From Gemmatimonadota bacterium (GTDB lineage Bacteria; Gemmatimonadota; Gemmatimonadetes; Palauibacterales; Palauibacteraceae): 31,237 nucleotides of DNA. Made by a program: the position numbers. Every line of letters starts with the position of its first letter. The first letter of the stretch is position 1. Positions 9,001-12,000 of this stretch are shown piece after piece. The stretch spans positions 1-31,237 of the forward strand of contig JBDHAC010000056.1 in NCBI GenBank assembly GCA_039588275.1. The letters run 5' to 3'.

Positions 9001-12000
9001 AGGACGTGCGGGCGGAGACGGAAGTCACGACCGGTCTGGAAGATCTCTCCGCGGCCAAGAACACCGACCGGACCGTGGTGGGTGCGGCGAACCTGCTGTT
9101 CGAGGTTACGCCCGAACTGAACCTCGTCGCTGCAGTCGGGCGGGGCTTCCGGGCGCCGAACCTCGTCGAGCTGTTCTTCAACGGACCTACGCCCGAGGGC
9201 TCGGGCTTCCAGGTGCGGAATCCGGAGCTGGAGGCCGAGACGAGCTTCAACATGGAGCTCGGCCTCAAGTACCGGCGCGCAAAGGTGGCTTTCGAAGGAT
9301 ACCTGTTCCGAAACCAGATTCGGAACGGCATTCGGATCTCGGAGACTGGCGAGGTGGTCGGCGGGTTCCCTGCCTTCCAGAACGTGAACGTCGACAAGCT
9401 GCGGTATCAGGGCTTCGAGGTGACGGGCGAATACGAGCCCTTCAGCGGCTTGACCTTCGGTGCCAGCTACAGCGCGCTCGACTCGAAGGACGTTCTGAAT
9501 CCGAACAACCCCATCGGGGACAGCTACTCGTCGAAAGTCGTGACTCACGTCACCTACCGGGAGCCCGACGGTCGCTTCTGGGCGACCTATCGTTTCCGGC
9601 ATTCGGGTGAGCAGAAGGACGCGGGGCTGCTGGACAACCCGATCGGTGACGTGCTGCCCGCGTTCTCGGTACACGACCTGCGCGGCGGCGTCCGGCTGCT
9701 CCAGCTCGGGCGCACGCAGCACAGCCTCGGGATCAGCGTCGAGAACCTGACGAACGAGCTGTACGCAGAGTTCTCCAACGCGTCGTTCTTCCGGCCCGAG
9801 CCGAAGCGCACGATCCTCCTGAGTTGGATCACGTCCTTCTAGCGGGCTGCTTCAGCAGCCTGCCGGGCGTGTGCCTGACTGGCGGGCGAGCGGAACAAAC
9901 GTTCGCCCGCCGCCCTTTTCCAAAGCGATCGGAGAGCTCACCATTTGACCCGCGACCATCGCGGTCACCCGGGGGAGGCTGACGAATGCGGAGCTTCGTG
10001 CACTTCATCCCGCTGGCGACAAGCCTGTTCGCGGTGTGGTTCGGCGTCGTGCTCTTGCGCCGCTACTCGAACCGGGGGGGGCTACATCTCCTGTGGTGGG
10101 GGATCGGAGCGCTCATGTACGCCACGGGGACGGTGACGGAGTCGCTCACCACGCTGTTCGGGTGGAACGAAGTGGTGTTCCGAGCCTGGTACATTTCCGG
10201 TGCGCTGCTCGGGGGAGCGCCGCTCGCGCAGGGTACCGTCTACCTCCTCCTGCGCCGTGCGACCGCTGATCGGCTCACGATCCTCTTGCTGAGCGCCGTG
10301 ACGGTGGCCGCGGCGTTCGTGGTGCTCACACCGATCGACTACGGCGCCGTGGAAACGTACCGGCTCTCGGGTCGTGTGATGGAGTGGAGCTGGGTGCGGG
10401 CTTTCAGTCCGTTCATCAACCTGTACGCCGCGGCCTTTCTGATCGGTGGGGCGGTCCTGTCCGCCGTCCGATTCCGGCGCATGCCGGACATGCGGCACCG
10501 CTTCCACGGGAACGTGCTGATCGCGATCGGGGCGCTGCTGCCCGGCATCGGCGGATCGTTCACGCGCTTCGGCTACGTCGAGGTGCTCTACGTGACGGAG
10601 CTCCTCGGGATCCTGCTCATCTACTGGGGTTACCGACTGAATATCGCGGTACGCGAGGTGGTGCGGGAAATGGCGCCGGCGGGCGTGTCCGGCCTGGGCG
10701 TCCAGACCGCCGCTTCGGGGGAGACTACTCCATAAGGCCCTTGTCGATCAGGTCTCGGGCGAGCTGCATGAAGTCACGCTCGCTCACGATCCCGACCAGA
10801 CGGCCGGCCTCCACGACCGGGAGTGCGGAGATGCGGTGCTTCCGCATGGTCTCGATGGCCTCCAGCGTGGATGTGTCAGGCGGTATTGTGATCAGCTCGC
10901 GGATCATGATACGCCCGACCGGCACCGGCTCCTCCGCGTTTCGGGCTTCGTCGCTGGCCAGAAAGCGAAGCAGGGTCCTACGCGTGACGAGCCCGATCAG
11001 CTGGTGCCCCGGGTCTTCCACGGGGATGTGGCGCACCTCGTTCCAGTCCATCAGATTGGCGACCAGGTCGATCGTCTGGTCCTCGTGCACGGTGACGATG
11101 TCGGTCGTCATGAAATGTCTCACCACCATATGACTGCCTTTCCACCCACCGCTCTCCGTCAATTCGGCGAGCTCCCATTCGTGCACGGGCCGATTCTCTT
11201 GCTGCCGCGCGACGATCGCCGCGGTGAGGGCCCGTAGCCGCTCATCGGGGGTTCCACGGCCCTTCATGCCCGCCACCGACCTCAGCATCCAATCCGCCCC
11301 CGTATGGCGCGATTCGACGCGTCTCTCGATGACGTTCAGGTAGCGGTCGATGTCCGGCTCGTCGATCCCGCACGTCGCCAGCCCGAAGGCGGCGATCTCG
11401 AGCAGCTGGTCGAGGATGAGTCGGCGCGCGCCGATCTCCTCGCCCCCCAGCCACGTTAACGGAGCTCCGAGCCCCAAACGTGCGGCCGAGAGGAAGTTCC
11501 CCTTGGCATCCCCGAAGCTCATGACTTCACGGATGTCCTCGAAGCGCTCGAGGAAGCCGGCCATCAGCCCGTACCAGAACGCGGCGTTGGCGATCTCGTC
11601 GAGGGGAGTCGGCCCGGAAGGGAGGACCCGGTTCTCGATGCGAAGGTGCGCGACCCCGTCGCTCACGCCGTAGCAGGGACGATTCCACCGGTAAACGGTG
11701 CTGTTGAACAGCTGAAGCGCCTGTAGCTCCGGGGCGGTGCCCGCGGCCACCAACTCGAGCGGGTCCTCTTCGATGTGCTTGCCGAGCAGGACCTGGAAGC
11801 GCCCGATGTCCTGCCGATAGATGTCGAGCACCGATTCTCTCACCCAATCGGTGCCGAAGCTCACGCGCGCGTGGGTCTCGCGCAGGTCCGGCGTCGGGCT
11901 CCTCGTGTCGACGGACTGTTCGAACAGCGCGATCCGCGTCTCGCGCCACAATCGACGCCCGAACAGGAGGGGAGAGTTGACGGCCGCGGCGAGCACGGGC

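Follow-up and report, generated by a model that had tools for sequence, protein, structure and literature searches.

The closest described counterparts of the system reported here are the haem ABC importers HmuTUV, ShuTUV and BhuTUV, which act at the inner membrane after a TonB haem receptor (available part of PMC6449446), and the hmuYRSTUV cluster of Bacteroidota, in which HmuY and a TonB receptor stand upstream of genes whose functions are unclear and for which an inner-membrane role has been hypothesised (available part of PMC12094164). Haem auxotrophy is common among environmental bacteria, according to the accessible portion of 10.1101/2021.01.11.426183, and the inner-membrane step is described as poorly understood for a number of haem users, among them enterococci and the Hmu systems of Bacteroidota, in the accessible sections of PMC11282960 and PMC12094164. 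TonB-dependent haem uptake with an inner-membrane partner is already known as a kind, and the partner family presented here was not found in the literature searched. The full texts searched, to which subscription papers mostly do not belong and whose supplementary gene tables could mention the family, held no description of it or of its fusions.

The window, that is the whole stretch of DNA analysed, comprises 31,237 nucleotides at the start of contig JBDHAC010000056.1 of a Gemmatimonadota bacterium (assembly GCA_039588275.1). It encodes a membrane protein for which we propose the same step as that of HmuTUV, ShuTUV and BhuTUV. Unlike those importers, the family is a single seven-helix chain, with no FecCD fold (PF01032 unmatched) and with no ATPase or binding protein in its module, although one branch of the family is fused to a FecCD permease. 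Identity with an HmuUV-type ABC permease was ruled out by the missing PF01032 match and by the GPCR-type model described below. Similar to hmuYRSTUV, five loci in two phyla (L037, L038, L133, L141 and L182) combine the gene with HmuY, which directly adjoins it, but no HmuS-, HmuT-, HmuU- or HmuV-type neighbour was recognised among the neighbours scanned there. The features of the locus are as follows.

7587..9842, + strand: TonB-dependent outer-membrane receptor, haem-type by best family match (Pfam Plug and barrel; TIGR01786 and TIGR01785 as best models)
9880..9912, + strand: 13-bp hairpin followed by CGCCCTTTTCC, in the spacer between receptor and gene (folding z of the spacer -3.6)
9974..9978, + strand: Shine-Dalgarno sequence GGAGG, 7 nt 5' of the ATG of gene 9986..10735 (sequence)
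9986..10735, + strand: seven-helix inner-membrane protein of 249 aa, uncharacterised family (ATG ORF, GPCR-type predicted fold, loop charges, conservation)
10085..10087, + strand: His34, where helix 2 starts at the cytoplasmic face, candidate inner haem ligand (His/Tyr alternation at this position)
10358..10360, + strand: Tyr125, in the long periplasmic loop, motif H/Y-R-L-S/T-G, candidate outer haem ligand (His/Tyr alternation)

The reading frame 9986-10735 has a coding-type composition, with GC contents of 0.64, 0.48 and 0.87 at the three codon positions; a promoter scan called no promoter. The initial annotation had described its product as lacking a family match, as a member of a large family and as closest to HisKA_7TM among the named atlas clusters, and all three statements hold. 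No Pfam model scored above its cut-off and no NCBIfam model matched, the sole Pfam trace being DUF3185 at E 0.028, under the cut-off. The family comprises 1,029 representatives at E<=0.001, and the HisKA_7TM cluster was reached at the low score of 0.82. Named relatives are 58-83% identical to the protein and belong mostly to Gemmatimonadota.

The seven transmembrane helices reported earlier were recovered by AlphaFold with a 71-row alignment at a pLDDT of 93.8. The companion statement that the protein has no significant PDB match stands for sequence, where a family-profile search gave nothing below E 0.36, and falls at the level of the fold, where both Foldseek and VIA-align led to GPCRs. The best Foldseek match had an E of 8e-4, and among the rows listed all were GPCRs. 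The best VIA-align match, GABA-B, gave a Z of 15.2 over 217 aligned residues with an rmsd of 3.9 Å, only slightly higher than the level of about 13 at which helical bundles match by arrangement alone. The superposition on GPCR transmembrane domains runs over the whole length of the predicted bundle, with identities of 5-13% among the listed VIA-align rows. The top 50 rows held GPCRs, a designed GPCR-like fold, ACER3 and LYCHOS, and no transporter of the PnuC or SWEET type. On these models the protein is predicted to have a GPCR-type seven-helix fold, with a probable N-out/C-in topology that fits the loop charges. The fold class is common to class C GPCR transmembrane domains, ACER3 and LYCHOS, whereas the present family is bacterial and has no His triad, and the fold alone shows no function. 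Microbial rhodopsins carry their retinal-binding Lys in helix 7; this identity was ruled out, as helix 7 (residues 198-220) is free of Lys. The CREST, haemolysin III and ceramidase hydrolases use three conserved metal-binding His, and were ruled out by the lack of any invariant His in the family.

HisKA_7TM (PF16927) is likewise a seven-helix bundle and weakly matches 9 of 71 family members at E<=0.1 over their full length, with a best E of 2.2e-6; the window protein gave no match. The scores seen, 18-21 bits (that of the best-E member not included), lie below the Pfam cut-off of 28.6. Unlike HisKA_7TM, the family is stand-alone and has never been seen fused to a kinase, so by use it is not this input domain, of which it may be a distant relative. 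The sensor domain of the operon kinase found in related loci is also predicted to be a seven-helix GPCR-type bundle. Since profile comparison of the family with this sensor gave a probability of only 3.9% over 27 columns, sequence homology between them is not supported, though both models show the same fold. Prediction of a complex between the family protein of L025, the kinase sensor domain of this locus and haem scored 0.01 with no contacts listed, and was not counted as evidence.

Residue conservation was analysed in 301 sequences, 233 of which form a close set of at least 48% identity, not dereplicated, and 68 a distant set. His6 and His34, earlier called invariant, are not: position 6 is His in only 111 of the 233 close sequences, and position 34 is His in 218 and Tyr in 15 of them, with His in 34 and Tyr in 23 of the 68 distant ones. 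Position 125 is His in 174 and Tyr in 27 close sequences (201 of 233 together), and is not conserved in the distant set. The family alignments contain no invariant His and no conserved metal-binding His triad or Cys. Residues E52, W60, W68, Y69, N145, N176 and E205 are invariant in the close set. From the His/Tyr alternation, we infer that there may be two haem sites, a cytoplasm-facing one at position 34 and another at position 125 within the periplasmic loop.

The receptor upstream is open from TTG 7437, with ATG 7587, preceded by AGGAG, as its likely start. TIGR01786 and TIGR01785 are its two best models, and it scored under both haem/haemoglobin cut-offs (222.7 bits against 323.75, and 210.6 against 316.85, respectively). 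The solved sequences nearest to it are Cir, PhuR and ShuA/ChuA. In canonical TonB haem receptors both the plug and the FRAP/NPNL loop contain a conserved His. The present receptor departs from this: its FRAP...NPEL loop is present without His, and its 111 orthologues share an invariant Tyr and no invariant His. For the receptors adjoining HmuY, B12 models and haem models gave similar scores, and the one in L038 has a His in its FRAP/NPNL loop. Because the window-type receptor is atypical in this respect across its 111 orthologues, haem as the cargo rests mainly on HmuY, ChuX/HutX, the hem genes and the HemB profile. The gene begins 143 bp past the receptor, and the hairpin at 9880..9912 in this spacer has equivalents with changed paired bases in L013 and L043. 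A terminator scan does not call it, and it is possibly an attenuator or an mRNA-stabilising stem.

The source genome (G000, 85.8% complete) had been described as a haem auxotroph, which was borne out, as queries with HemB and HemH found no match; neither did HemC, HemD, HemE and ChdC. The genome encodes two cytochrome c assembly proteins and, on a contig other than that of the window, one FecCD-type ABC system, whose ATPase reached 246.5 against a cut-off of 261 on the haem ABC model. It therefore looks like a haem user unable to make haem.

The position of the gene behind a haem-type receptor was found more strongly than claimed before, with the receptor directly upstream in all 12 family-level loci, including that of the window. 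Among 33 GTDB loci, the window-type receptor stands directly upstream in 21 and another receptor subtype with HmuY in 2; the remainder show a sensor kinase and regulator without a receptor (4), or are otherwise arranged or cut by a contig end (6). The order kinase, LuxR-type regulator, receptor, gene occurs in 13 of the 33. Eighteen further Gemmatimonadota loci, chosen from 41 carriers, have this full four-gene order in 7 cases, the receptor only in 3, kinase and regulator only in 1, HmuY with the other receptor subtype in 2 (one of them a fusion) and the gene alone in 5. The arrangement of kinase, regulator and gene without any receptor was seen in 6 loci (L026, L030, L033, L034, L105 and L149), and four genomes with this arrangement lack a receptor orthologue. 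The kinase and regulator pair is absent from the window, and the kinase sensor domain was not found in the source genome at its 85.8% completeness. In other related loci a short ORF for a membrane protein with a C-terminal RPPP or RAPP stands before the receptor or before the seven-helix gene; it lies in front in 31 of the best 80 of 512 metagenome loci, retrieved with a fusion-based query, and is absent from the source genome. This ORF resembles the CruR (DUF2946) leader upstream of BfrG (available part of PMC9426467), but is His-based instead of CxxC and has no DUF2946 match. Regulation falls to other genes, either the sensor kinase and LuxR-type regulator in Gemmatimonadota or the leader ORF. 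No other gene of the module is as constant as the seven-helix gene, whose retention while regulator and receptor subtype change fits a regulated effector. The FecCD ATPase and binding protein are absent from the module in the window; besides the FecCD fusions, a FecCD system lies divergently in L040 and L045 only. Of ten Bacteroidota loci, nine lack a receptor. In one Bacteroidota locus (L188) the gene directly follows cydA-cydB. Other neighbours seen were PucC, CbiX and one riboflavin operon. The earlier link to ccm genes and cytochrome c maturation was not reproduced: queries with the source genome's own Ccm proteins detected CcmB, CcmC or CcmF in none of 183 carrier loci.

The phylogenetic profile also ties the family to haem. 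In 301 Gemmatimonadota genomes the gene is present in 30 of 94 HemB-negative against 11 of 207 HemB-positive ones (odds ratio 8.4), where the 41 carriers are strong matches, the weak match in G012 counts as a non-carrier, and four unpublished genomes (G152, G116, G236 and G211) count as HemB-positive non-carriers. The other 64 of the 94 HemB-negative genomes are without the gene, and in HemB-negative G001, of the same genus, the receptor is intact and the gene has lost its start and about 160 codons. In the Bacteroidota class of G739 (131 genomes), full-length carriers make up 26 of 43 HemB-negative against 2 of 88 HemB-positive genomes, with the broken copy of G878 left out; since these carriers are mostly one lineage, the odds ratios overstate independence. 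A FecCD permease, which might carry haem, is present in all 41 Gemmatimonadota tested, so it does not discriminate within this phylum. FecCD queries found no match in 10 of the 21 Bacteroidota carriers, and the five of these that were examined further all have COX1 and HmuY and no HemB or HemE match (genome completeness not reported). Megabase contigs occur in some genomes of the HemB-negative lineage of Bacteroidota.

The family extends to the monoderm Chloroflexota, where 99 of 201 genomes, about half, have a member (the unpublished G532 included). HemB is present in 34 of the 40 best-scoring carriers. In 30 loci chosen across the score range, of which a subset of neighbours was scanned, hemC-hemD lie directly upstream in two (L162 and L169), PucC with or without ChuX/HutX just upstream in three, and a chdC-hemE-hemH cluster about 3 kb off in a separate operon in three. 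The scanned neighbours of 22 of the 30 include no haem gene, and most of the loci are without a receptor. These loci tie the family to haem beyond its uptake by auxotrophs, so a role as a membrane haem chaperone keeps real weight.

Fusions provide a further link to uptake. In 76 longer homologues the seven-helix domain is followed by a TonB Plug in 70 (68 with the barrel), by HmuY in one and by FecCD in two; the latter (P0004 and P0199) bear out the FecCD fusion noted before. Three named fusion members belong to Thermoanaerobaculia. A profile search for longer homologues (16) added one receptor fusion. No kinase, cyclase, DNA-binding or other signalling output is fused among the 76 and 16 longer homologues, with 8,000 candidates scored each time. 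Fusions to SHMT (P0017) and integrase (P0223) look like artefacts and were set aside, as was an unexplained PilX_N fusion (P0160). In the receptor fusions, the linker past helix 7 contains a signal-type hydrophobic stretch in 69 of 70 cases (control frequencies: 4 of 70 for windows downstream, 0 of 33 for the tails of unfused proteins), a strict cleavage motif in 49 and no Met before the stretch in 46. On DNA, eight fusion loci are continuous ORFs, and in six of the eight, four of them close kin, the linker has no in-frame ATG, GTG or TTG. A frameshift artefact was rejected because the linker design is conserved over 70 clusters and eight loci are continuous ORFs. In the single HmuY fusion the signal is of the lipoprotein type and is preceded by a Met. 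In a quick tree of 141 sampled rows, from which the window's own row was left out, the HmuY fusion, the FecCD fusions and two groups of receptor fusions lie on separate branches, consistent with fusions having arisen several times. Since the C-in end of the bundle orients the internal signal correctly, cleavage of the receptor fusions into two proteins at an internal signal peptide would be the simplest reading of these sequences. The FbcH cytochrome b/c1 precursor of Bradyrhizobium japonicum provides a known case, in which one ORF yields two envelope proteins via an internal signal sequence; in the fused relatives the second product would instead be an outer-membrane beta-barrel, and the comparison does not apply to the window's own gene.

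Taken together, a haem-related role of the seven-helix family is very probable, and there is good support for a role in haem uptake from the repeated fusions, from the co-location with HmuY, ChuX/HutX, hem genes and two different subtypes of receptor, and from the enrichment in HemB-negative genomes. The earlier designation as an inner-membrane haem import factor thus stands as to haem uptake, through the fusions, the co-location and the HemB-negative enrichment in two phyla, whereas its importer step is only the leading reading. As the best candidate we propose, at a probability of roughly 0.45, a non-ABC inner-membrane haem carrier, which would insert haem into the cytoplasmic membrane or carry it through, with no ABC ATPase involved. 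The TonB receptor, alone or with HmuY, would bring haem into the periplasm. The protein would take it at a periplasm-facing pocket formed by the His/Tyr125 loop and the conserved E52, W68, Y69, R138, N145, Y202 and E205, and release it either close to His/Tyr34, at the cytoplasmic face, or sideways into the bilayer. The delivered haem would go to b-type cytochromes, to Ccm and to the synthesis of haem A/O; in bacteria that produce haem, such as many Chloroflexota, the carrier could handle the cell's own haem. In the fusion lineages a single chain would enter the inner membrane, and the receptor would be released from it by signal peptidase I, which would cut the internal signal peptide at a predicted A-x-A site. 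Rather doubtful as a whole is the broader claim of a new class of bacterial haem transporter, single-chain, ATP-independent and of GPCR-type fold, with a haem relay between outer and inner His/Tyr sites, which would supply haem auxotrophs of Gemmatimonadota, Acidobacteriota and Bacteroidota, some without a FecCD permease, and which in some lineages would arise as one polyprotein that includes the outer-membrane receptor and is cut by signal peptidase.

Several observations count against a carrier. Its fold is of a receptor type, the sensor of the related operon kinase has the same fold, HisKA_7TM matches weakly and no His is invariant. FecCD is present in all 41 Gemmatimonadota tested, 64 of the 94 HemB-negative genomes of this phylum do without the gene, it is broken in G001, and four genomes have the gene and no receptor orthologue. 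In Chloroflexota, 34 of 40 carriers have HemB and 22 of 30 loci no haem gene among the scanned neighbours, and the window receptor lacks the canonical His and scored under the cut-offs. An alternative is a membrane haem chaperone or buffer, which would bind imported or home-made haem in the bilayer and pass it to membrane haemoproteins or detoxify it without net transport. The gene lies directly after hemC-hemD in haem producers and after cydA-cydB in L188, it is kept in genomes without a receptor orthologue, a GPCR-type fold offers a pocket and no obvious through-path, and haem may enter membranes without an active importer (according to the available part of PMC11282960). We consider such a role unlikely, as the fusions to the FecCD permease and to the outer-membrane receptor point to the uptake line, the 183 loci are free of ccm genes and HemB-negative diderms are enriched in the gene. 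The fold in common with the kinase sensor domain, the weak full-length HisKA_7TM matches and the six loci of kinase, regulator and gene without a receptor could instead reflect a stand-alone haem receptor, or co-sensor, whose trans signal to the neighbouring kinase or to some other regulator would adjust how strongly the uptake genes are expressed. HrrS and ChrS, which have six helices, sense haem within the membrane via aromatic residues (available part of PMC5812335). A co-sensor appears distinctly unlikely, given that the source genome, at 85.8% completeness, contains no orthologue of the kinase sensor, that no such kinase stands beside the gene in the leader-ORF, fusion, Bacteroidota and Chloroflexota loci examined, that none of the longer homologues (76 and 16) has a signalling output and that the profile comparison reached only 3.9%.

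The cargo might also be other than haem, such as iron-free porphyrin, a corrinoid or another tetrapyrrole or vitamin, or the protein might be a membrane enzyme acting on it, a reductase or one that releases iron. To this would fit the window-type receptor without an invariant His, the near-equal B12 and haem scores of the HmuY-adjoining receptors, and PucC, CbiX and the riboflavin operon as neighbours. HmuY, ChuX/HutX, the hem genes and the HemB-negative enrichment all point to haem, and the family has no conserved metal-binding His triad or Cys, making another cargo or an enzyme improbable. That the gene is a passenger of unrelated membrane function which hitch-hiked with the receptor is very improbable: the nine of ten Bacteroidota loci and most Chloroflexota loci without a receptor, and the broken gene of G001, would agree with it, whereas the fusions to three different uptake proteins on separate branches of the quick tree, and the retention of the gene when the receptor subtype is swapped, argue against it.

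The family travels with haem-capture genes in several bacterial phyla and is enriched in bacteria unable to make haem. Should it prove to be a haem carrier, it would represent a class of transporter whose fold is elsewhere associated with signalling. Should its role be limited to binding or sensing haem, a ligand would be assigned to an unannotated bacterial GPCR-fold family, which is present in 99 of the 201 Chloroflexota genomes sampled. In addition, the fused forms bear on the question of whether cells can produce a barrel of the outer membrane as the C-terminal part of a protein of the inner membrane.

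The seven-helix gene and the haem-type TonB receptor gene are accompanied in the window by the following genes:
4451-4915, forward strand, Rrf2 regulator
4961-6451, reverse strand, beta-eliminating lyase
6683-7291, forward strand, ZIP-family metal transporter, just 5' of the receptor gene
10725-12638, reverse strand, fusion of a glutamate-cysteine ligase family 2 domain with a CBS pair at the C-terminus
17837-20203, reverse strand, gamma-glutamyltranspeptidase of 788 aa, assigned by Pfam
The ligase-CBS gene and the seven-helix gene are convergent, with their 3' ends overlapping by 11 bases. 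The lyase and the Rrf2 regulator are common only to the same-genus loci L013 and L043. The gamma-glutamyltranspeptidase is longer than the 512-position Pfam model and was matched in two stretches.

A further member of the receptor's subfamily, with about 50% identity, is encoded in the same genome at L130:6904-9477 (contig C15, 23903-26476), with no seven-helix gene adjoining it. This second receptor carries an additional N-terminal domain of about 130 aa, which has no match in Pfam and which, judged by eye, reads like a CbiX-type chelatase fold. A CbiX gene also adjoins the HmuY locus L038.

The start and about 160 codons of the seven-helix gene are deleted in the HemB-negative genome G001 of the same genus (L043:7930-8250), where the receptor and the spacer hairpin are retained, and this copy is either a pseudogene or an assembly error. 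In protein P0005, the seven-helix domain is followed by an internal signal peptide and then by the last barrel strands only, so that it looks like a fusion from which most of the receptor was deleted. At L050:180-3256 the seven-helix gene and the receptor gene overlap in different reading frames, and the pair is probably a frameshifted fusion. At L136:7997-11197, in the HemB-positive genome G339, a stand-alone copy lies in divergent orientation to genes for a catalase and a Fur-family regulator. The Akkermansiaceae-labelled locus L022 is nearly collinear with the Gemmatimonadota loci L016 and L024, and is possibly a mis-binned contig.

Members of a Chloroflexota subgroup (L177-L181) are 347-366 aa long. 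The family profile matches each gene in two or three stretches that overlap in part, which suggests that helices were internally duplicated or inserted. Ribosomal-protein genes (L11, L10 and L7/L12, identified by eye) adjoin four of the five. One further Chloroflexota copy stands last in a riboflavin biosynthesis operon (L154:2579-6805), after ribD, ribE, ribAB and ribH.

A small membrane leader ORF was observed at L084:6085-6579, L059:6448-6921 and 29 other metagenome loci, where it precedes the receptor, the fusion or the seven-helix gene alone. It has two conserved histidines and a C-terminal RPPP or RAPP, and is a candidate haem-sensing arrest peptide. A previously undescribed two-component pair is encoded at L015:3117-5593 and 12 other GTDB loci. 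Its kinase has a seven-helix sensor of GPCR fold, in which WHQ and HHLDYP motifs are conserved, together with GAF and HisKA_3 kinase domains, and the partner of this kinase is a LuxR/NarL-type regulator. We propose this pair as a candidate haem-sensing system of Gemmatimonadota.
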